A stretch of 64,000 nt of DNA from Minisyncoccota bacterium (GTDB lineage Bacteria; Patescibacteriota; Minisyncoccia; Phycocordibacterales; UBA918), in assembly GCA_021734905.1 (NCBI GenBank), contig JAIPIB010000003.1:1334-65333 (forward strand). Reading direction: 5' to 3'. Below, one piece after another: positions 19,665 through 62,426 of this stretch. Below the pieces are notes generated by a model. That model ran no database searches and was not told the origin of the DNA. It saw nothing but the letters and a program-made list of their open reading frames with translations. Within the stretch, counting starts at the first letter, position 1, and the number at the start of each line of letters is the position of its first letter. The translations under genes were made by a program, and so were the position numbers.

Positions 19665-21099
19665 CTTGCAAATCTCTTACTAAGATGCGGAAGACAATAT
19701 CTGTCGTTTCACCAGTAACTGGTTGAGAACTATATGACACTTCTTCTGGCGTTGTTGTGCTCAAACGAGCGTACGTGTCAATTGCCGAAAACCTCGTTGC
19801 GTCTCCTTGAAGGGTAGCATCTGTCGTATGATAACCAAAACAGCTTGTTGAAGATGCGTGACAGGCGGCACTCCATGCAGATGGTGCTGCGTTAGTACTG
19901 GAAATTTGTTTTATAACTACTCCTGACGAACTAACCAGATCACCATCCATCGCCATAAGTATTTGATGCCCTTGCGTTCCGTTTGAATCAACGACCAAAC
20001 GATGAGCGCCTTCTACAAAAGTATTAAGTGGAACCTTACCAAATGGTACGGATGTTGGTGTCGTATCGATATCAAGTGTTACTCCAGCAATTACCGTTGA
20101 CGAGGCCACAGCATCCATTGTAAATTGCAAACTCGCTCCCTCTGTTGCAAGAGACGGGTACGATTCTCCTGAATTTGTAAAGACAGGAATATCCTGAGCG
20201 AGACCGTACAGCCTGAAATAGTAGATTTGGTTAACTCGAGGTCCTGCTGACTTAATTGTGAATTCATACTCAGTTGATGCACCTCCTTTGTGTCTAAATC
20301 CTGTGAGATTATCTGATGATTCATTATGAGTTCCACATCCATCACCTATTCCTGAAGCACAGCTGTCAGCATCAGAAATAACTTTTGTAGAGATGACAGC
20401 ATTATCAACACCTCCTCCATCTGCATAACACCAAGTTGATGTAGCGAGGCACGTTGATGAAGCGACGACGTCAAATGGTATAGAGAAATTAGCATACTCT
20501 GAGTACTGAAGTTTGAAACGAACATCGTCACGAGAAATATTTTCCGTCTCCTTAACTGTTACCCTCAATTTCACGATTTGTCCATTTGTAATATCAACCG
20601 GGGTTACATTCTCATTGGCAAGTGGGGTACTTGGTGTCTCATTTGTTTCGTCATCGTAAAACCTCCAATTCTGTGATTTTGGTGTAAAACTAGAAGTACG
20701 TATTTGAGGGTAGTTTGAGTAGATGTCGAGTTTTGTCCCATCCACATCCACCATTCTAAAGCAGTAGTATGTCTCAGCTGTTGCGCCATAGATAGCAGCA
20801 ACGACAATTGAACGATCTTTCGGAGTAACCGAACGATCAACAACAAGGACATCCCCGTCAAATATTTTTGCACCTTGCATAGAATCACCTTCTACGCGCA
20901 CGAAAAACGTTGATGCTGGATGTTTGACGACCAGATCATTAATATCCAAGACCTTTTCAATCAAATCATCGCCAGGGGCAGGAAAACCTGCCTGCGGTCT
21001 AGAACTAAACAATGGAAGCTCTAAATCACTATCTTGAATACCAATTCCTTCAAGTACCACAACATTTGCCTCGTGCCTTTTTATGCTTTTTTCTTTCAT
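19612..21099 (-). CDS. fusion protein: N-terminal LexA/UmuD-type S24 peptidase domain + ~360-aa Thr/Ser/Gly-rich C-terminal domain
   Basis: AGFPAPGDD...HPASTFFVRVEGDSMQGAKIFDGDVLVVDRS aligns with the UmuD/LexA S24 core (GFPSPA...GDSM...DGD). No signal peptide. Continuous 495-aa ORF overlapping the downstream gene by ~50 nt. Confidence 0.6.
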   Translation of the reverse strand: MKEKSIKRHEANVVVLEGIGIQDSDLELPLFSSRPQAGFPAPGDDLIEKVLDINDLVVKHPASTFFVRVEGDSMQGAKIFDGDVLVVDRSVTPKDRSIVVAAIYGATAETYYCFRMVDVDGTKLDIYSNYPQIRTSSFTPKSQNWRFYDDETNETPSTPLANENVTPVDITNGQIVKLRVTVKETENISRDDVRFKLQYSEYANFSIPFDVVASSTCLATSTWCYADGGGVDNAVISTKVISDADSCASGIGDGCGTHNESSDNLTGFRHKGGASTEYEFTIKSAGPRVNQIYYFRLYGLAQDIPVFTNSGESYPSLATEGASLQFTMDAVASSTVIAGVTLDIDTTPTSVPFGKVPLNTFVEGAHRLVVDSNGTQGHQILMAMDGDLVSSSGVVIKQISSTNAAPSAWSAACHASSTSCFGYHTTDATLQGDATRFSAIDTYARLSTTTPEEVSYSSQPVTGETTDIVFRILVRDLQDAGLYENNIRYISVPMF

Positions 21100-21743
21100 A
21101 TCTTATGAGGCTTCATTCTAGCAGACTTCTTCTTATCCCAATCGGCAATATCTGCAGATTTTCTCTCAAGCATCTGCGCATTGCGGATATATTTCTTATT
21201 TTGATGTGGAATTACCTTTAGATATGGAGTATCGTATATTCTTTCAGCAATACTCCATAAATCTTGCTTTGCGAAAATCCATTGTTTTCCAAAACGATTC
21301 AAATTAATCGGTTTTGTATAACCAAGAAGTGTTTTCTCGCCATTCTTTACAAGAAAATATTCATGAAAATATGACATAACAAGCTCCCTCAGAGTTCGGT
21401 ATACTGGATCACGATATCTTAAGACAGCATGATTCGTCTTACTAATTGCGCCGTAGTATCCATTTCTACGAAAAATCGTAACTACATGATCATAATCATC
21501 CTTTGAGGAAACTTTTAAATTAACCACGAGTGGTTTTTCACCCTGAAGAAGTAAACATACTCCAGCAAACATTGCTCCTTCAATACAGTGGGCCTTATTT
21601 TCTCTCAGGACTCTAAGTGGCGACAAGCACGTTTCACCGCTCAACTCGTGATTAAAAGGTATTTTCTCAAGAAATGTTTGAATTTTATCTGGAGTATTCA
21701 GTGTTTGCAGTAATTTATAATCATTGTTTTTATCTAGAAACAT
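21096..21743 (-). CDS. papain-fold (transglutaminase/C39-like) putative cysteine peptidase domain protein; start set to the internal Met
   Basis: Cys...His...Asp arrangement (AHCIEGAMFAGVCL, YDHVVTIF, NGYYG). The longer ORF to 21983 adds a poly-Ser low-complexity N-terminus, so ATG at 21741-21743 is preferred. Confidence 0.45.
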   Translation of the reverse strand: MFLDKNNDYKLLQTLNTPDKIQTFLEKIPFNHELSGETCLSPLRVLRENKAHCIEGAMFAGVCLLLQGEKPLVVNLKVSSKDDYDHVVTIFRRNGYYGAISKTNHAVLRYRDPVYRTLRELVMSYFHEYFLVKNGEKTLLGYTKPINLNRFGKQWIFAKQDLWSIAERIYDTPYLKVIPHQNKKYIRNAQMLERKSADIADWDKKKSARMKPHKI

Positions 21744-22073
21744 ATTAACAATAAGTATACCAGCAAGTCTCCTAAAGACTCCTGGTATTGCAAAGAAAGT
21801 TGAACTGAGGGTAAAGGAAGGTTGTAATAAATCTGGCGATGCAAAAGGTGTGCTCTGTACTAAATTACGAATAAAGTACGAGGATGGAAAGTTTGAAATA
21901 AAAGATAAAAAGAAAATAATGGATAATAGTGATGATGAAGATGAAGATGGTTCAGACACAAGCACAAGTACGTCCAACAGCAACTAGTCACAAAATATAT
22001 AAAACTGCCTTACCATAAGGCAGTTTTATATATATCGCCATTAGTATATAATTCATCTCTAATCTAGATAAAT

Positions 22074-22574
22074 ATGAACTATAAAAAATTACTAATTTTC
22101 TCAATCACTGCGATAATTATTTTCTTTCCAAACAATCAATCATCTGCATATTTCACAACTGCACAGAATGAAATCTTGCTCAATGATGGATCTGGTCTTT
22201 TTCTCATTGAATATTCTTTCAGTAATAAGAAAAACGATATCTCAATGCCTATTCTTGCACAAGAATCAAATTCAAAAAATCGTTCCTTTCTTGAGTATTC
22301 TATTTTCAACAGTCAAGGAGAGACTGTTTCTGGTAAAACAACAGCCATTGTCCTCAGCAATGCACAGATTTTGGATTCGAGATTATATAAAATACCAAAA
22401 GGAACTTTCGGAACATTTACTCTAGCTGTTGTCTTTACTCCAGAAATAAAAGATAAAAAAGAGAAATATCGACTTGAGGTGACCAGTCTCCCTTTTGATT
22501 TTATAGGGCAGGCTCAGCTACAACTAAACCCAAGCGAGCTCCAATACTACACGACGAAATTTCTTCGACTCTAA
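22074..22574 (+). CDS. hypothetical secreted protein
   Basis: 166 aa; signal peptide MNYKKLLIFSITAIIIFFPNNQSSA. Confidence 0.45.
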   Translation: MNYKKLLIFSITAIIIFFPNNQSSAYFTTAQNEILLNDGSGLFLIEYSFSNKKNDISMPILAQESNSKNRSFLEYSIFNSQGETVSGKTTAIVLSNAQILDSRLYKIPKGTFGTFTLAVVFTPEIKDKKEKYRLEVTSLPFDFIGQAQLQLNPSELQYYTTKFLRL

Positions 22575-37040: not shown

Positions 37041-37463
37041 CTATTTCCAAAAGACAGTTACAAAAACTCCAAGTGTTACAAGCATCCCTCCAACCACATT
37101 TCCCATAGTCGGTTTTTCAGCAAGGAAGACAAATGCCAAGACTATTGTGAGTGCAATACTTATCTTATCAATTGGGGCGACTCGCGAAACTTCTCCGAGC
37201 TGTAACGCTTTGTAGTAGAAAAGCCATGAGACTCCTGTTGCAAGTGCAGAAAGAAAAATGAAAATATAGGAGTATCTTGATATTTTAAACATATCTGAGG
37301 CATTGCCCTGAATAAAAACAATCGTCCATGCGAAAAACACAATGACAATAGTTCTGAGTGCAACGGCAAGATTACTATCGACGCCCTTAATGCCAATTTT
37401 TCCAAAAATAGCAACGAGAGAAGCGAAGAACGCAGACAGGAGTGCATAAATTGCCCAGTTCAT
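37041..37463 (-). CDS. EamA-like (DMT superfamily) 4-TM small membrane protein
   Basis: 140 aa; YKALQLGEVSRVAPIDKISIALTIVLAFVFL EamA signature. Confidence 0.6.
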   Translation of the reverse strand: MNWAIYALLSAFFASLVAIFGKIGIKGVDSNLAVALRTIVIVFFAWTIVFIQGNASDMFKISRYSYIFIFLSALATGVSWLFYYKALQLGEVSRVAPIDKISIALTIVLAFVFLAEKPTMGNVVGGMLVTLGVFVTVFWK

Positions 37464-37478
37464 ATACGAATTATTATA

Positions 37479-38123
37479 TCATTCTTGCACTCCTGTCTGC
37501 CTTCTTGCTCTCATATACAATACAAATATTCCGATGAGGACGACGAGAGCGACTGAGATTTCAATGTAAGTTTCGACTTGTGATGATTGTTCAATAAGTA
37601 TCATTAGTGCCTCCAACCCAATATAGCCAGCATAGAGATAGAAACTATCTCTAAAAATTGTTCCTATAAATGTCGATACAACAAATACACGAAGTGGAAT
37701 CTTGAGAAGACCAGCACCAACAGAAAGAAGAACACTTGGAACAAATGGGAGTGCTCTAAAGATTGTGAGTAAAACGTAGTCCTTAAATCCGTTTCCGAGT
37801 TTACTACCAAGGAGATCAACGTCGTTTTGTGTCACATTGAAAAATCGACCAAATTTATTAATAACAAAATCTTCAGATTTGCTCGCAATCGCATAGACGA
37901 CAAGTGCACCAAGAGTCTTCCCACAGGCACCAATAAGAACAAGTGGAACAAGTGCATACAAAGTACGCTCCTGCACTGCAGCAAAAGACCCAAGGACAAC
38001 CATAACAGTTGGAGATGGTATAGGGGCAACAACTTCTTCAACAAATGAAGCAAAGAAAGCAAACGCCTCGAGTGAGAGTGTATGAATAGTCGAAATAAGG
38101 ATTTCTTCCAGATATAAAAACAT
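37479..38123 (-). CDS. DedA/VTT (SNARE-associated) family membrane protein
   Basis: 214 aa; conserved DedA core (GACGKTLGALVVYAI...RALPFVPSVLLSVGAGLLKIP). Confidence 0.75.
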   Translation of the reverse strand: MFLYLEEILISTIHTLSLEAFAFFASFVEEVVAPIPSPTVMVVLGSFAAVQERTLYALVPLVLIGACGKTLGALVVYAIASKSEDFVINKFGRFFNVTQNDVDLLGSKLGNGFKDYVLLTIFRALPFVPSVLLSVGAGLLKIPLRVFVVSTFIGTIFRDSFYLYAGYIGLEALMILIEQSSQVETYIEISVALVVLIGIFVLYMRARRQTGVQE

Positions 38124-45929: not shown

Positions 45930-46301
45930 TCACTGTCGCCTTTCCTTCTCAACAAAAACAAAACCCTGTCTTCCGTTACAATCAAGAAGTAATTCGGTAC
46001 ACCATGCTTCCGGAATCGGAGTCTCGCCGTCCTTTCCAAGTGTACTGATCTGAAGCATTCCTTCCACACCATCCACATACTGAACCAGTGACACATAATC
46101 CAAATCATTGGAAAGTAGCGGCATTAATCTTGAAGTGAAATTCTCAAGATCTCCAGATTGAAATGGAAAATATTTGAGACTTTCGAGATAGGAAAGAAAT
46201 GCATTCAGATCAATTAAATTTGACTCTGGTATTACAAGAACACACGCAACATTGTTGATTAGTATACTTCTTGAAAAGAAGTTAACTTCATGCGGTACCA
46301 T
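45930..46301 (-). CDS. hypothetical protein
   Basis: 123-aa ORF; no confident motif. Confidence 0.3.
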   Translation of the reverse strand: MVPHEVNFFSRSILINNVACVLVIPESNLIDLNAFLSYLESLKYFPFQSGDLENFTSRLMPLLSNDLDYVSLVQYVDGVEGMLQISTLGKDGETPIPEAWCTELLLDCNGRQGFVFVEKERRQ

Positions 46302-46398
46302 TTTGCTCTCCCAAGGAACATAAATTTAAATGAACAATAAGACCTTCGGTGTAAAATGTCAAAGAGGATAGTCCACGGCGTGATACACTTTTTTAAGT

Positions 46399-47259
46399 AT
46401 GGATTACCCTATCCAAAAACTCACAGTAGACGAATTCCCTCCTCTACTTTGTGAAATTCCTAAACCTCCTAAAGAACTATATCTTAAAGGGACCCTACCA
46501 CCGCAAGGCACTTCGTGCCTTGCGGTGGTAGGGTCCCGTAATTACACAAATTATGGAAAGCAAGTAGTTGAATACCTCATCAGCGGACTTCGAGGATATC
46601 CTATTTCAATAATTTCTGGACTCGCACTCGGTATTGACTCCCTTGCACACACAGCAGCTCTAAGTACAGGTCTCCATACACTAGCGGTGCCTGGATCAGG
46701 AATAGATGATACGGTCATTTACCCACGCAGAAACCTTACTCTTGCACAACAAATACTTGGGCAAGGTGGTGGCCTTCTCAGTGAATTTGAACCGACCTTC
46801 AGAGCAACACCATGGTCTTTTCCACAACGCAACCGAATTATGGCTGGATTGTCTCACGCAGTCTTACTCATTGAAGCAAGCGAACGTTCAGGCACGCTTA
46901 TTACCGCTCGACTCACTGCAGACTATAACCGAGAACTACTTGTCGTCCCCGGTAACATTTTTTCAGAAAATAGTGCAGGCAGTCATCAATTCCTTAAACT
47001 CGGCGCAACCCCAGTAACAACTCCCGAGGATATTTTGATCGCCCTTAATATTGATGAAAAAATTGAAACACAAACACAAAATCAGCTCTTCACTGAGGAA
47101 GAGCTAACCATCCTCAACCTCCTCTCCGAACCAAAGGACAGCGATACGATAATTCGTCTCTTTCCTTCATCACCACAAGAAACAGTCACACTCCTCATGC
47201 ACATGGAACTCAATGGACTCATTACCGAACAGAACGGGGTGTTTTATCGTACTACTTAG
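46399..47259 (+). CDS. dprA: DNA processing protein DprA (Smf)
   Basis: LAVVGSRNYTNYGKQVVEYL...ISGLALGIDSLAHTAAL Rossmann-like DprA core. Confidence 0.85.
   Translation: MDYPIQKLTVDEFPPLLCEIPKPPKELYLKGTLPPQGTSCLAVVGSRNYTNYGKQVVEYLISGLRGYPISIISGLALGIDSLAHTAALSTGLHTLAVPGSGIDDTVIYPRRNLTLAQQILGQGGGLLSEFEPTFRATPWSFPQRNRIMAGLSHAVLLIEASERSGTLITARLTADYNRELLVVPGNIFSENSAGSHQFLKLGATPVTTPEDILIALNIDEKIETQTQNQLFTEEELTILNLLSEPKDSDTIIRLFPSSPQETVTLLMHMELNGLITEQNGVFYRTT
46489..46537. repeat. perfect inverted repeat (23-bp arms, 3-nt loop) inside the dprA coding sequence
   Basis: GGGACCCTACCACCGCAAGGCAC-TTC-GTGCCTTGCGGTGGTAGGGTCCC; GC-rich against an AT-rich background; in-frame, encodes GTLPPQGTSCLAVVGS. Confidence 0.9.
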
Positions 47260-47267
47260 CTACTTCT

Positions 47268-48098
47268 TTATATCACCCTCCTGAGTGTCCCATCTTCCTG
47301 CATTTCCACAGCCTCAACATTTTTGATGCTATGGTCTCCGGTATCTTTCTCTAGTGCGACGCTCATGTAGTTTTCATGTCCAAATGCAAGAATATTGACT
47401 CGTTTATCTCCACTCGCTTTCTCTCTCGCAAACTCTGCGAGACGTTTCATGTTCTTAAACTGTGTCTCGTAGAGCTCTTCCGATGTCACAATTGATGGGT
47501 CAATTTTCTTTGCCTCTTCAGCATGCGCGTCGAAGTTTGCTCCCCACGAGCCCTTGTCATCCTTCGAAACAATTTCTTTAATCTTCTCAAACATTCGTCT
47601 TGTTTCATTTCCTACCTTTTCCCAATTTACTTTGGGAAGATATGCGGGTGAGTTGAATGCACTCAGAATGAGTTGATTCTTGCTTCCAAGAGATAATGTA
47701 TCGAGTGTGCGAACATATCCTTCACCAACTTTCGTCGCTAGCTCCATGCCAGTCTTTTCATGAAGAACAACTTCAATACCTCGTGCCTTTGCAATATCAA
47801 CGTATATCTTCGCTGTTTCGAGCGCGCGCATCTGTGTACTTGAAACCGCATACACTACATCTTCATCAGCACTAAATGTCTCAAAGAACTTCTCAGCTTC
47901 CCTCTGTGCGAGCTCAACTCCGGCTGGTGGCAAGTCAGGAACCTGTTCCTCTAGATTCATATCTGCCTCAGGATTTTCGGAAGCAAACGCTTCTGCGTAA
48001 CTTGCATAGGTGGCTTTTGAATGCCTAATAAAAAAGACTCTCATCCTTTTCTCTATCTCAACACTTTCATTACTTTTTCCTTGCTCAAAACCAAACAT
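47268..48098 (-). CDS. divergent histidine-phosphatase-superfamily-like protein
   Basis: FFIRHSKATY (RHG-like) near the N-terminus and ILAFGHENYM near the C-terminus; weak. Confidence 0.4.
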   Translation of the reverse strand: MFGFEQGKSNESVEIEKRMRVFFIRHSKATYASYAEAFASENPEADMNLEEQVPDLPPAGVELAQREAEKFFETFSADEDVVYAVSSTQMRALETAKIYVDIAKARGIEVVLHEKTGMELATKVGEGYVRTLDTLSLGSKNQLILSAFNSPAYLPKVNWEKVGNETRRMFEKIKEIVSKDDKGSWGANFDAHAEEAKKIDPSIVTSEELYETQFKNMKRLAEFAREKASGDKRVNILAFGHENYMSVALEKDTGDHSIKNVEAVEMQEDGTLRRVI

Positions 48099-57963: not shown

Positions 57964-58569
57964 CTACCTTCTGCAAAGCATGTTATATGTTTGAGCTGAC
58001 TTTCTCTCCCTAAGCCATGTACCAACGGACTCATTGCCGACAGCAATTTCATTAGTGGTCGCCCAATCCAAACCAGTTTTGCCATGACGAAAAAGACAAT
58101 GGCCAAAACGTGCAACATCAAACTTGCCGTCACAAGGCTCAACAACTTTCTCAATTGCAAAATATGGCTGAAAGCTATTTCGGCGATATCGCAGCTTGAG
58201 GGTAATTTCCGAAAGAACAGGGACAAGGACCTTATTTGGAGTGACGGTATAGATGAGCTCTGTTCCTCCTTTTTCCTCGGGAACTTCTTCAATCTGACCG
58301 TCAGCAATACGGGCAACAGAAACCCAATGCACGGTCTCTGCTACCATCTCTGACCCATGAGCAAAGCTATGAAAGCCACTTGGGACTTTAGAGATGAATT
58401 TGTGATACGCAAGAATAAGTTCCCCAGAAAATTTACGCACAGCGGGTGCAAAAACAGTTCGAACCAATCTTCTCTGAAGTCCGTCGCGCAATCCTGCGAT
58501 AGGCTTTTCCGCAGAGTCCCAAATTTGTTTTAAGACGAGTACTTCTGGCGTACTTGTTGTGATAATCAC
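57964..58569 (-). CDS. hypothetical protein
   Basis: 201-aa ORF divergent from miaA; not confidently assigned. Confidence 0.4.
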   Translation of the reverse strand: MIITTSTPEVLVLKQIWDSAEKPIAGLRDGLQRRLVRTVFAPAVRKFSGELILAYHKFISKVPSGFHSFAHGSEMVAETVHWVSVARIADGQIEEVPEEKGGTELIYTVTPNKVLVPVLSEITLKLRYRRNSFQPYFAIEKVVEPCDGKFDVARFGHCLFRHGKTGLDWATTNEIAVGNESVGTWLRERKSAQTYNMLCRR

Positions 58570-58705
58570 GGATCACCTCCATTTGTTTAATTTGAGAAAT
58601 AGCAAGACCTCAATCCAAGTCAAATCCTACGCTATCCGTGTACAAATGCAAATTCATCCTCACACACGCGTTACAAGCACACCTAAATATGATATACCTG
58701 CACTC

Positions 58706-59596
58706 ATGAGCAAGTCAAAAGTATTAGTTATAGTAGGACCTACAGCATCGGGGAAGACTTCCCTTTCTATATCTCTCGCCAAAAAATTTGACGGTGAGAT
58801 TACTTCTGCTGACTCACGACAAGTTTATAAGGGGCTTGATATAGGAACTGGCAAGGTTACTAAGGGTGAAATGGAGGGTGTTCCACATCATCTTCTTGAT
58901 GTAGTATGCCCTGAAGAAACCTATACCGTCGCGGACTTCGTCCGCGACGGTCGAAATGCCATTACTGACATACACTCTCGTGGGAGACTTCCCATAATTG
59001 TCGGTGGAACATTTTTTTATGTTGATGCTCTTTTGGGTAAAATTGTTACACCAGAAGTTCCACCAAATCAAAAACTGCGAGCTGAGCTAGAGGATTGCTC
59101 GAATGAAGATCTTTTTTTAAGATTACAAGAAAAAGATCCTAAGCGGTCAAAAAACATTGACCAGCACAACGGCCGGAGACTCATCCGTGCACTTGAGATC
59201 GTGGATTCGCTAGGCTCTGTCCCAAAGATCCATGTTGAAGAACTTTATGATGTGCTCACGCTTGGTATCGCGATTAATCGCGATACCCTCAAAGAAAATA
59301 TCCACACTCGTCTTGCTGACCGATTAAAAACAGGAATGCTTGAGGAAGTTACTGAGCTACATAAGGCAGGACTTTCATACGAAAGACTTTCAGAGCTTGG
59401 AATTGAATATCAATACCTCAGTAAATTTATACAAGGAAATATTTCAGAAGATGAAATGCGACAACAAATTGAAACAAAAAGTTGGCAATACGCAAAACGT
59501 CAAATGATGTGGCTAAAGCGAGACAAGACGATACAATGGGTGAAATTGGATGAATTGGAAAAAATTGATACGTTAGTAAATAAATTTTTAAGATAG
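58706..59596 (+). CDS. miaA: tRNA dimethylallyltransferase
   Basis: P-loop VLVIVGPTASGKTSLSISLA then DSRQVYKGLDIGT. The ORF-track start at 58559 is an upstream in-frame extension; Met at 58706 is the likely start. Confidence 0.85.
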   Translation: MSKSKVLVIVGPTASGKTSLSISLAKKFDGEITSADSRQVYKGLDIGTGKVTKGEMEGVPHHLLDVVCPEETYTVADFVRDGRNAITDIHSRGRLPIIVGGTFFYVDALLGKIVTPEVPPNQKLRAELEDCSNEDLFLRLQEKDPKRSKNIDQHNGRRLIRALEIVDSLGSVPKIHVEELYDVLTLGIAINRDTLKENIHTRLADRLKTGMLEEVTELHKAGLSYERLSELGIEYQYLSKFIQGNISEDEMRQQIETKSWQYAKRQMMWLKRDKTIQWVKLDELEKIDTLVNKFLR

Positions 59597-59710: not shown

Positions 59711-59772
59711 CCCGCAGAGGTAAAAGAAAAAGAGCATGCAAATGCATGCTCTTTTTCTTTTACCTCTGCGGG
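59711..59772. terminator. 62-nt perfect palindrome (29-bp arms) abutting and overlapping the 3' end of tRNA-Trp; bidirectional terminator candidate between miaA and tRNA-Trp
   Basis: CCCGCAGAGGTAAAAGAAAAAGAGCATGC-AAAT-GCATGCTCTTTTTCTTTTACCTCTGCGGG; last 4 nt overlap the tRNA acceptor 3' end. Confidence 0.7.
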
Positions 59773-59839
59773 CCCACGTGGAATCGAACCACGGCCACTG
59801 GTTTTGGAGACCAGCATTCTACCTCTAAACTATAGGCCC
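59769..59839 (-). tRNA. tRNA-Trp (anticodon CCA)
   Basis: minus-strand cloverleaf: acceptor GGGCCTA/TGGGCCC, anticodon stem CTGGT/ACCAG with loop CTCCAAA, T-arm CGTGG-TTCGATT-CCACG, discriminator G. Confidence 0.8.
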
Positions 59840-59889: not shown

Positions 59890-60744
59890 CTAGCTCCTTA
59901 CCAGAACATCCCAATGATCTCCCTCTTGCGCATAAATAGTTCCATCAGGCGCTGTATACATAGTGGCTCCGTCACTCCTAACTCCAGAATTTTTATAGTT
60001 TGTGATTATATATGTATTAAGCTTTGGGTTCATGCGAGCATCATATTTATACCCATTTCCATGACTTGTTGCTCCTGCGGCATGACCACCTGTGGACTCT
60101 GTTCCTCCGGTAATTGTTACATCACAATTACAATCTCTTTTAAGGTCAATTGCATCTTTAATAGTGGCGTCTCTTATCCCTTGAAGTGACGTACATCCTG
60201 ACGTTCCACTGCAATCAGCTTGTACTTTTCCTCCTGAACTAGTGACCGAAACATTTGCTGCTGTAAGACGATTGACAGCGTCATCTTGTGACAATCCACC
60301 TCCCTTTCCGACTGAAGCAACAGAGGGGGCTTGTGAAGACTGAGATGTTGCACTTGGAATTCCTGGTACACATTGAATTTCATTCCAAGGACCAAGGAGA
60401 GCTCCTTCGTTAAGGAGAAGTTTGAGTGCAGTATCAACGATAAGGTATCCAGAGAGAAGAATAACAAAACCAACCACTGAATTCGTCATCGTCGTACGCG
60501 CCTGAGATATTGCTTCAGTTGAACCACCAGACATAACCATTTTCATCCCTCCGAACGCAAACATGAGTGCGATAATGGTCGCCATAATTCCAATAAACCA
60601 TGAAATGAGTTTTTGTCCGAGCTCAACAAAATCACACGCTTGACAATCTGGACCATCACAAGGAACAATCCCTTCTCCAGCAAACGTCAACGCAGGAACT
60701 GATATAAGTAGTGCAAGAAAGACTACGAGTAAGGTGCGTTTCAT
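59890..60744 (-). CDS. fusion of Patescibacteria-type T4SS pilin-like (TrbC/VirB2-like) domain with C-terminal LAS-type (M15-like) zinc peptidase-like domain
   Basis: signal peptide, IVPCDGPDCQACDFVELGQKLISWFIGIMATIIALMFAFGGMKMVMSGG + second TM (pilin-like pattern); C-terminus TSHGNGYKYD (SxHxxGxAxD-like) and EGDHWD (ExxH-like). Start taken at MKRTLLVV (GGTGAG RBS); ORF-track 5' extension to 60990 rejected. Confidence 0.55.
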   Translation of the reverse strand: MKRTLLVVFLALLISVPALTFAGEGIVPCDGPDCQACDFVELGQKLISWFIGIMATIIALMFAFGGMKMVMSGGSTEAISQARTTMTNSVVGFVILLSGYLIVDTALKLLLNEGALLGPWNEIQCVPGIPSATSQSSQAPSVASVGKGGGLSQDDAVNRLTAANVSVTSSGGKVQADCSGTSGCTSLQGIRDATIKDAIDLKRDCNCDVTITGGTESTGGHAAGATSHGNGYKYDARMNPKLNTYIITNYKNSGVRSDGATMYTAPDGTIYAQEGDHWDVLVRS

Positions 60745-60836
60745 ACTCACCATCTTATCATGTTCCTTTGTAACACTTTTACTAAACAGTGAATTGTGGT
60801 ACTTTATAACCTGTCTCTCGGGACATTCAGATACAT

Positions 60837-60893
60837 GCGTCGGTGGCAGAGTGAGAAAGTCTGGTAGACTTTCGCAAGAGGTTGTCGATATTT
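60837..60893 (+). other. 17-nt exact copy of the tRNA-Tyr 5' end followed by a hairpin and conserved AAGAGGTTGTCGATATTT, ~140 nt upstream of tRNA-Tyr
   Basis: GCGTCGGTGGCAGAGTG identical to tRNA-Tyr positions 1-17; hairpin GAAAGTCT-GGT-AGACTTTC (60855-60873); motif shared with the tRNA-Leu upstream element. Confidence 0.7.
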
Positions 60894-60993
60894 CGTTGAG
60901 AAATATCATACAATCTGAACAGCGCCTGTAAGGCGGTAACGAAGTCAAATGCCTGTTATAATCAAAGCGTCTTTGATGACAGGTCAACATAAT

Positions 60994-61569: not shown

Positions 61570-61629
61570 AGCTCCAGCGGGGAAAACAACCACAGTTGTC
61601 TTCCCCGCTGGAGCTGTTTTCTTTTTCTG
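61570..61629 (+). terminator. long rho-independent terminator
   Basis: AGCTCCAGCGGGGAA...TTCCCCGCTGGAGCT (15-bp stem with inner ACAAC/GTTGT) followed by GTTTTCTTTTTCT. Confidence 0.7.
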
Positions 61630-61859: not shown

Positions 61860-62426
61860 TCACAGATACTTTAGTCGAAGTCCTTCATTTTTTAAGTCAC
61901 ACAATGAATCGTATATGTCATGCATTACAACCCGCAACATCCGAAAATGTGTAAAGTTGTGTGCCACACACCCGTCTGCAATGAAGTTGTGCTCACCCTG
62001 TGTATACAGGTTAAACACTGGTTCAGTTGTTCCGGTTGGCGCAATACTCTTGATACAAGAATGTGCCGCTTTTGACGAACTGATGCGCATGATGCTGTCA
62101 CCTGGACTGAGCTTTTTAATCGACTGATATCCTTTATCAGTCATAAAGCTATGGCCCAAAGTACAGATCATTCCAACATCATCTGATTCAAAAGTTACAT
62201 TGACCAGTGGTGCTGGTTCGTGAACCAACTTGCGAGTGATTCGTCTTGGGACCAAAATGCCCTTTTTGTATGACAGAACCATTTCCCCTTCGGACAAATC
62301 TCCGATAGGAATTTTGCCACTCGGTGTTTCTATAAGTGTAGACTTGGGGAAACAATCCCAAGAATATTCAATACCTCTGGTACCTGCGCCTGGCAAATCA
62401 TTATCTACGTCAGAGTGCTTACCCAT
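61860..62426 (-). CDS. free-standing Hint/mini-intein-like (bacterial intein-like) domain protein
   Basis: block A CFPKSTLIETPSGKIPIGDL after a 24-aa leader; block B TLGHSFMT; blocks F/G EPVFNLYTQGEHNFIADGCVAHN; 31-aa tail after the HN beginning with Phe, not Cys/Ser/Thr. Confidence 0.7.
   Translation of the reverse strand: MGKHSDVDNDLPGAGTRGIEYSWDCFPKSTLIETPSGKIPIGDLSEGEMVLSYKKGILVPRRITRKLVHEPAPLVNVTFESDDVGMICTLGHSFMTDKGYQSIKKLSPGDSIMRISSSKAAHSCIKSIAPTGTTEPVFNLYTQGEHNFIADGCVAHNFTHFRMLRVVMHDIYDSLCDLKNEGLRLKYL

Follow-up and report, generated by a model that had tools for sequence, protein, structure and literature searches.

An in-frame perfect palindrome in dprA of a Paceibacteria subclade, probably kept near-perfect by template switching between its arms

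The dprA locus and its palindrome

The DNA analysed here, a 64-kb stretch (64,000 nucleotides, hereafter the window) of contig JAIPIB010000003.1 from a Minisyncoccota bacterium, carries a dprA gene within which lies a perfect 49-nt palindrome, at positions 46489-46537: GGGACCCTACCACCGCAAGGCAC-TTC-GTGCCTTGCGGTGGTAGGGTCCC, with 23-nt arms and a 3-nt spacer. Sequence and coordinates are exactly those of a preliminary description of this DNA, which had reported a perfect hairpin with 23-bp arms in frame within the gene. The palindrome starts 90 nt inside the coding sequence (CDS) and occupies codons 31-47, i.e. G31 to S46 and the first base of R47. The elements of the locus are the following:

46399..47259, + strand: dprA CDS, host of the palindrome (286 aa; Pfam DNA_processg_A, PF02481, E=8e-64)
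46489..46511, + strand: left arm, codons G31-T38 (GTLPPQGT), clade-specific residues
46512..46514, + strand: spacer TTC, third base of T38 and first two bases of S39
46515..46537, + strand: right arm, third base of S39, codons C40-S46 and first base of R47, encoding CLAVVGS, the conserved strand beta-1 of the Rossmann fold

The encoded protein is 100% identical to a protein annotated as DprA in a metagenome-assembled genome of Candidatus Pacebacteria. Its AlphaFold model (mean predicted local distance difference test score 83, about 90 around the hairpin-encoded region) features a strand at residues 27-31, a surface loop at 32-38 and a second strand at 39-45, the left arm encoding the end of a strand and mostly loop. 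On the right-arm side, residues L41, V44, G45, S46 and R47 are invariant in 44 homologues. This combination of a constrained right arm and a variable left arm fits a left arm that may have been rewritten repeatedly as the complement of the right arm. The contrast in composition described previously, of a GC-rich repeat in an AT-rich gene, needs some qualification, the gene itself being only mildly AT-rich (45% GC, with 2-kb bins of the window at 32-43% and mostly about 40%). The codons immediately 3′ of the palindrome (46538-46556) specify a conserved N-Y-T-N-Y motif (GTAATTACACAAATTAT), for which a small AU-rich hairpin of 6 bp is predicted, probably a trivial result of repeated Asn-Tyr codons.

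Codon register, chance and folding

The palindrome folds with a minimum free energy of -53.7 kcal/mol as RNA (z=-10.7) and -34.6 kcal/mol as DNA (z=-12.2), and it was matched in none of 100 shuffles of the window. Position i of the palindrome pairs with position 50-i, such that first codon positions face first codon positions and second positions face the wobble positions of the other arm. In the peptide GTLPPQGT-S-CLAVVGSR, all 8 of the first-position pairs are complementary (G/R, T/S, L/G, P/V, P/V, Q/A, G/L and T/C), and part of the complementarity is therefore supplied by the peptide itself, which raises the baseline against which pairing has to be judged. With the peptide held fixed and the gene's own codon usage applied, synonymous resampling gave 11.4±1.8 pairs and at most 19 in 20,000 trials, compared with the 23 observed. 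Exact enumeration found 16 perfect recodings among 3.3e10, corresponding to a probability of 1.2e-10 under the same codon usage. The perfect palindrome is therefore neither a product of chance nor a by-product of the peptide; the preliminary description had likewise called such a stem highly improbable by chance. All 16 perfect recodings have identical arms, the only free bases being the silent base of T38 and the wobble base of R47. Since peptide and perfect pairing together fix the arm sequence, lineages with this peptide that reach perfect pairing will converge on the same nucleotides. Among the long hairpins of the window, that of dprA is the only one located inside a coding sequence.

Distribution of the palindrome among relatives

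Segment length and pairing were compared across 140 orthologous dprA loci from genomes and metagenomes (designated below by L and a number). The 17-codon segment is equally long in all of these, most of which lack the palindrome; the palindrome is thus not an insertion, in agreement with the earlier assessment. It was found in identical form in the Logan assembly of SRR12088351. DNA was compared from 16 members of the subclade defined by the peptide G-[NT]-L-P-P-x-G-T-x-C-L-A-V-V-G-S-R, and homologous hairpins with 15-22 of the 23 Watson-Crick pairs are present at the same codons in unrelated datasets (L082, L166/L167, L168, L004, L002, L169, L170, L163, L172 and L003). The number of Watson-Crick pairs, out of 23, is as follows:

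Window: 23
L082: 22
L166: 21
L168, L004: 19
L169, L002: 18
L170, L163, L172: 17
L003: 15
L162, L164, L165, L171: 13
L173: 12

Measured against synonymous recodings of the same sequence, folding is far more stable than expected in 12 of the 15 clade members tested (z from -3.4 to -10.4) and marginal in L162, L164 and L165 (z from -1.1 to -1.7). Seven nearer outgroups yielded z values of about 0, and the four distant loci in which pair counts are somewhat elevated (L057, L058, L073 and L079) gave values of 0.0 to -1.1. Pairing was at background level in orthologues of at most 66% protein identity, with a median pair-count z of -0.1 across the 140 loci, and a palindrome signal was absent from the 125 more distant orthologues. 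As judged from these comparisons, dprA of one Paceibacteria subclade, within the Parcubacteria of the candidate phyla radiation (CPR), carries the palindrome as a real and long-standing feature of its DNA.

Comparison of nucleotide conservation in orthologues, proposed earlier as a check on the palindrome, had a divided outcome. The nucleotide palindrome is retained in L082, L166, L168, L004 and L002, whereas L162, L164, L165 and L173 encode nearly the same peptide with non-complementary codons. These last four have mostly lost the stem, with only 12-13 pairs left, and L162 is the nearest relative of the window; retention thus falls short of essentially all clade members. Because their open reading frames (ORFs) are nevertheless intact, the hairpin is non-essential.

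Renewal of pairing and homogenisation of the arms

In the rest of the gene, codons at identical residues are themselves identical in a proportion of only 0.37-0.51, near saturation. With synonymous sites near saturation elsewhere in the gene, the complementarity of the arms must have been actively renewed. In an alignment of 15 sequences, 82% of cells are paired, compared with 37-51% when partners are slid. Changes on both sides are evident at 7 stem pairs, compared with 2.2±1.1 in shuffles (0/500 reaching the observed value) and at most 4 in slid controls. The changes that preserve pairing include the following, with residues numbered within the 17-codon segment:

Q6R (CAA->CGA): compensated by L11 CTT->CTC, in many sequences
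A12V (LAVVGSR->LVVVGSR): compensated by silent P5 CCG->CCA, in L168
C10F: compensated by silent G7 GGC->GGA, in L171
G7D: compensated by silent C10 TGC->TGT, in L172
GT.C->EA.L (GGCAC/GTGCC->GAAGC/GCTTC): joint change of both arms, in L002
N2T: compensated by silent G15 GGT->GGG, in the window itself

The N2T change is specific to the window and, together with the silent changes at G15, G1 and S16, lengthens its stem to 23 bp.

Codons of the window hairpin are shared at 4 of 13 positions with the nearest relative, L162 (83% amino acid identity), and at 13 of 15 with the more distant L166 (71%). Inheritance of the shared wobble bases from a common ancestor was rejected on this account, the nearest relative sharing fewer hairpin codons than the distant one and the sequence being fixed by peptide and pairing. 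There is, for the same reasons, no need to invoke a horizontal exchange of the 49-mer between L166 and the window.

The mode of change can be followed in the comparison of L163, which has Ser at residue 39 (S-type), with L173, which has Lys (K-type), at about 85% nucleotide identity. Their hairpin differences form a clustered multi-nucleotide block. The apical 11 nt of the left arm of L163 (CCGCAAGGCAC) exactly match the reverse complement of GTGCCTTGCGG, a right-arm sequence common to both loci; L173 has CCAGCGGGCGC instead. A single copying event from the right arm would explain the PAGA/PQGT difference between the two. The same pair of loci (15/49 differences) had suggested that the hairpin is a hot spot of divergence; this was dropped, since over all close pairs the hairpin ranks 155 of 600 windows (divergence 0.20 vs 0.17), about the gene average. 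Intact hairpins are purely Watson-Crick, with 0 G:T among the 84 pairs of the window, L082, L166 and L002, as predicted by a process of DNA copying.

Inversion of the spacer and residue 39

The spacer TTC of the window is the reverse complement of the spacer GAA (encoding T-K) found in relatives with the same arms. Identical arms thus occur with both spacer orientations, as GGCAC-GAA-GTGCC in L082, L003 and L004, and as GGCAC-TTC-GTGCC in the window, L163, L166 and L168. The spacer is TTC in 7/7 sequences with Ser at residue 39 (codons ..T TCG, or ..T TCC in L172, encoding T/A-S), and in the Lys/Arg-39 sequences (9/9) it is GAA in 3, AAA in 5 and AAG in 1. At the silent third position of codon 38, T occurs in 7/7 Ser-types and in 0/9 Lys/Arg-types (Fisher p=8.7e-5, uncorrected for shared ancestry); in the remainder of these genes, no more than 20% of Thr codons are ACT. 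That a silent base tracks the neighbouring residue cannot be explained by selection at the protein level, and is predicted by inversion.

Of 117 homologous proteins, 71 carry K and 15 carry S at residue 39. On a distance-based, neighbour-joining tree of these proteins, which was built with the hairpin segment masked and is weakly resolved, about 11 changes between S and non-S were counted (bootstraps 11-13), and for several S-types the nearest neighbour is K-type, at 91-93% identity. Several independent flips of residue 39 can be considered firm, and the figure of about 11 switches is an estimate.

Template switching as the favoured explanation

The best reading of these data is homogenisation of the arms of a coding quasi-palindrome by template switching, accompanied by inversion of its spacer, an explanation absent from the candidates put forward in the preliminary description. 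On balance we consider it probable that the dprA palindrome is a self-perpetuating DNA structure kept near-perfect by template switching between its arms, with the mRNA hairpin as a by-product. The following scheme may be proposed. The widely conserved peptide G-x-L-P...L-A-V-V-G-S-R already supplies a quasi-palindrome through its codon register. Template switching during DNA synthesis would then copy one arm from the other, making wobble bases, and sometimes amino acids, complementary. Only conversions tolerated by the protein would survive, and the surface loop encoded by the left arm would be moulded onto the constrained beta-1 strand. The exchange of GAA and TTC, observed as a pattern, could result from inter-strand switching or recombination between arms that inverts the 3-nt spacer, and such inversions would have switched residue 39 from Lys to Ser or back on many independent occasions. 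In some lineages the palindrome has decayed while dprA has stayed intact. The mRNA hairpin, at about -50 kcal/mol, may lower or modulate DprA expression as a by-product, and the scheme does not require that it do so.

All the sequence-level features of a template-switch coding inverted repeat are found here, namely a repeat with short spacer in a CDS, arm homogenisation, both spacer orientations and recurrence. Several observations nevertheless weigh against this explanation. Persistence across synonymously saturated lineages is equally expected from purifying selection on a structure, and a compensatory pattern of this kind is predicted by template switching and selection alike. Mismatches are G:T in 26 cases and A:C in 10 (38:32 under the null), a weakly significant excess (binomial p ~0.03, uncorrected for phylogeny), and G:U pairs provide much of the fold stability in L170 and L169; both hint at constraint on the sense-strand RNA. 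As a decisive discriminator between RNA and DNA, the asymmetry between G:U and A:C was dropped for its weak significance and the uncorrected phylogeny. Rare codons are kept, CCG at P5 and TCG at S9, of which TCG represents 14% of Ser codons elsewhere. The window harbours no other coding palindrome of this length, although more sites might be expected to be affected if the process were purely mutational. The small number of subclade members compared at the DNA level and the weak support of the residue-39 tree also count on this side.

The orientation of the gene may also be relevant. In nearly all 2-kb bins of the window (1-64000) the GC skew is negative, and cumulative skew falls steadily; dprA is on the + strand and most neighbouring genes are on the - strand. 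Transcription of dprA may therefore be head-on to replication, which could matter for the frequency of template switching.

Alternative explanations

The most serious alternative holds that the palindrome is a selected cis-acting stem-loop in dprA mRNA or single-stranded dprA DNA, kept by purifying or compensatory selection, with template switching supplying the mutations; an RNase III substrate or a translation throttle holding DprA low would be examples. The regulatory or pausing mRNA hairpin envisaged in the preliminary description belongs here, and we regard this explanation as possible, but rather unlikely. In its favour are the covariation at the 7 doubly changed pairs, a signal that template switching also gives in the absence of selection (PMC8794818, PMC8604942), and the stability beyond synonymous nulls in 12/15 members, as well as maintenance of the stem through saturated synonymous divergence and despite amino acid changes in the conserved beta-1 strand. 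The excess of G:T over A:C mismatches, the rescue of the fold by G:U pairs in L170 and L169, the retained rare codons and the status of the palindrome as the sole long coding one in the window also speak for it. On the other hand, most of the stem has been lost in 3-4 lineages, including the nearest relatives of the window, with dprA intact, and the hairpin evolves at about the average rate of the gene. Twenty-three perfect Watson-Crick pairs without G:U exceed what an RNA usually needs and are typical of DNA copying. The recurrent exact inversion of the spacer has no rationale at the RNA level. There is no U-run, nor a conserved slippery site upstream, and a search of Rfam with the hairpin returned no family match, the best hit being to a generic hairpin with 22 bits against a gathering score of 53.1.

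Specific RNA functions were considered and rejected. An intrinsic terminator or attenuator does not fit the sequences that follow the hairpin (+ strand, GTAATTACACAA; - strand, TTTAAGATATAG), as a T-run is conserved in relatives at neither of them. A stimulator of -1 frameshifting was dismissed for lack of an X_XXY_YYZ heptamer at the right spacing, the upstream bases (CTTAAA, CTAAGG, GTGCGC) being unconserved.

A DNA-level recognition site, i.e. a palindromic operator, a site for a recombinase or nuclease, or an uptake or recombination signal in a competence gene, appears very improbable. Perfect dyad symmetry within a transformation gene invites such an interpretation, and a dimeric binder that co-evolves with its site could formally account for matching changes in the two half-sites. 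Yet a second copy was sought in the 64-kb window with up to 3 mismatches and none was present, no arm sub-word of 12 nt or more recurs there, and viral contigs contained 0 matches to the core palindrome. The uptake or recombination site proposed earlier is thus unsupported. Changes among relatives preserve pairing and not sequence (e.g. GGCAC/GTGCC vs GAAGC/GCTTC), making the previously suggested protein-binding palindrome unlikely as well; moreover, the palindrome is lost in some lineages, and it lies 90 nt into the CDS instead of at a promoter. A repeated signal or mobile palindromic element, such as DNA uptake sequences (DUS/USS), repetitive extragenic palindromes (REP), miniature inverted-repeat transposable elements (MITE) or Rickettsia palindromic elements (RPE), was rejected on the basis of its single copy in 64 kb and the unchanged segment length in the 140 orthologues. 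Programmed inversion of the invertase type was also rejected, there being no adjacent recombinase and, in the literature listing consulted, no precedent for a 3-nt invertible segment. A literature search for a dprA hairpin in Patescibacteria retrieved nothing relevant.

Finally, amplification or mis-assembly of metagenomic DNA can give rise to palindromic junctions and the peptide alone gives 8 complementary first-position pairs, but an assembly or amplification artefact (a palindromic chimera, as suspected in the preliminary description) and a chance by-product of the peptide can be regarded as essentially excluded by the intact ORF of normal length, the same sequence in a second, separate assembly, near-perfect homologous hairpins in many independent metagenomes and assemblers, and a probability given the peptide of about 1e-10.

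Gene neighbourhood and other features of the window

Local synteny around dprA (45930-48098) differs from that in L164-L166, L168 and L171-L173. In several relatives serS is divergent from dprA across a gap of about 80 bp, and topA lies downstream of dprA in L164, L165, L166 and L168. The window has an additional 123-aa ORF without Pfam match between serS and dprA, and downstream of dprA, on the opposite strand, a 276-aa ORF (weak match to His_Phos_1, below the Pfam cut-off) and a gene for a PEP-utilising enzyme in place of topA.

Other long inverted repeats and features of potential interest in the window are the following:

59711-59772: perfect palindrome longer than that of dprA, with 30-nt arms and a 2-nt spacer (CCCGCAGAGGTAAAAGAAAAAGAGCATGCA-AA-...), intergenic between miaA (58559-59596, Pfam IPPT) and tRNA-Trp (59768-59839, - strand), overlapping the tRNA 3′ end by 5 nt
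61570-61615: intergenic hairpin with 21-nt arms (95% complementary), followed by TTTTCTTTTTC
21983-22045: AT-rich imperfect inverted repeat with 30-nt arms (83%), between divergent ORFs at 21096-21983 (-) and 22074-22574 (+)
37426-37506: imperfect inverted repeat with 26-nt arms (88%) and a 29-nt spacer, spanning the junction of two - strand ORFs
59890-60990, - strand: 366-aa ORF with a T4SS_pilin match (PF18895, E=2e-6), adjoining the tRNA genes for Trp and Tyr
61860-62426, - strand: 188-aa ORF matching Hint_2 (E=8e-7) and, under the Pfam cut-off, Intein_splicing (E=1e-6); its product begins C...TLIETP and ends ...HNF

The 59711-59772 palindrome is not followed by a clean T-run on either strand, and could be a bidirectional terminator or another repeat perfected by template switching. 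The hairpin at 61570-61615 looks like an ordinary intrinsic terminator, and the repeat at 21983-22045 may be an operator. These other long hairpins of the window do not point to a genome-wide phenomenon of coding hairpins, a possibility that was rejected with two of them intergenic (59711-59772 and 61570-61615) and the others at gene boundaries. The 61860-62426 product appears, from its domain matches and termini, to be a free-standing Hint/intein-like domain protein.

Significance

The dprA palindrome adds a new case to a class of mutational events already known. It would provide a natural bacterial example, over deep evolutionary time, of a DNA-copying process that writes protein sequence. 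The clade-specific residues P35, Q/R36, G37, T38 and C40 and the recurrent Lys/Ser polymorphism appear best explained by reverse-complement copying, and not by selection at the protein level. This suggests caution in the use of methods that take covariation or parallel amino acid change as proof of selection, as covariation as strong as that found here (0/500 shuffles) and some 11 parallel K/S switches can arise in the absence of selection.

It is also conceivable, if unlikely and somewhat more so than selection on a stem-loop in general, that the hairpin is a selected cis-regulatory element tuning the recombination mediator DprA, either as an mRNA stem (RNase III substrate or translation throttle) or as a hairpin in single-stranded DNA. 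If so, the machinery for competence and DNA scavenging in CPR bacteria would have its first described conserved regulatory structure, which template switching would serve to repair. The established competence regulators are not known from CPR bacteria, and a functional hairpin would offer a first handle on the regulation of dprA in these organisms.

Comparison with known systems

Palindromic elements inserted in frame into genes are represented by the Rickettsia palindromic elements and the mitochondrial GC clusters. As in dprA, a GC-rich palindrome is translated as part of a protein; these elements, however, are multi-copy mobile insertions that lengthen the protein, while the dprA palindrome is single-copy and associated with no change in length. 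Hairpin-associated minute inversions were reportedly described in chloroplast non-coding DNA by Kelchner and Wendel in 1996. They resemble the dprA case in the recurrent, homoplasious flips of a short loop between stable inverted-repeat arms, and differ from it in being organellar and non-coding, each flip in dprA changing an amino acid.

Template switching has been proposed to create and maintain the stems of RNA hairpins, with rare complete inversions of the loop (Monttinen & Loytynoja 2022, PMC8794818). The one-step, multi-base compensatory changes of stems and the occasional complete loop inversions are as in dprA, but those stems are functional and located in RNA genes, whereas the dprA stem lies in a protein-coding region with both arms under amino acid constraint. 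In Escherichia coli, template switching brings quasi-palindromes to perfection or closer to it (PMC7202029), and at the quasi-palindrome hotspots of E. coli and phage T4 (Ripley 1982; thyA and lacZ quasi-palindrome (QP) reporters; PMC7202029) the nascent strand is templated by the other arm, as proposed for dprA. Those are laboratory mutation events over generations, while for dprA only the evolutionary outcome is at hand and we infer the mechanism from its footprint.

A close parallel is found in coding genes of yeast, in which template switching between short inverted repeats leads to homogenisation of arms, inversions of 2-5-nt spacers and repeated flips at one site, including an inversion of ttc to gaa in YPS1 that replaces S by K (Abraham & Hazkani-Covo 2021, PMC8604942). 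The yeast repeats share with dprA a perfect repeat in a CDS with a spacer of 2-5 nt, multi-nucleotide matching of the arms, exact spacer inversions that alter 1-2 residues, the ttc<->gaa exchange of S and K among them, and parallel flips at the same site. The yeast arms measure 10-16 bp and reflect recent events within species, compared with up to 23 bp in dprA of a CPR bacterium. Unlike its counterparts in yeast, the dprA palindrome persists across a synonymously saturated clade, many lineages of which carry their own compensated version.

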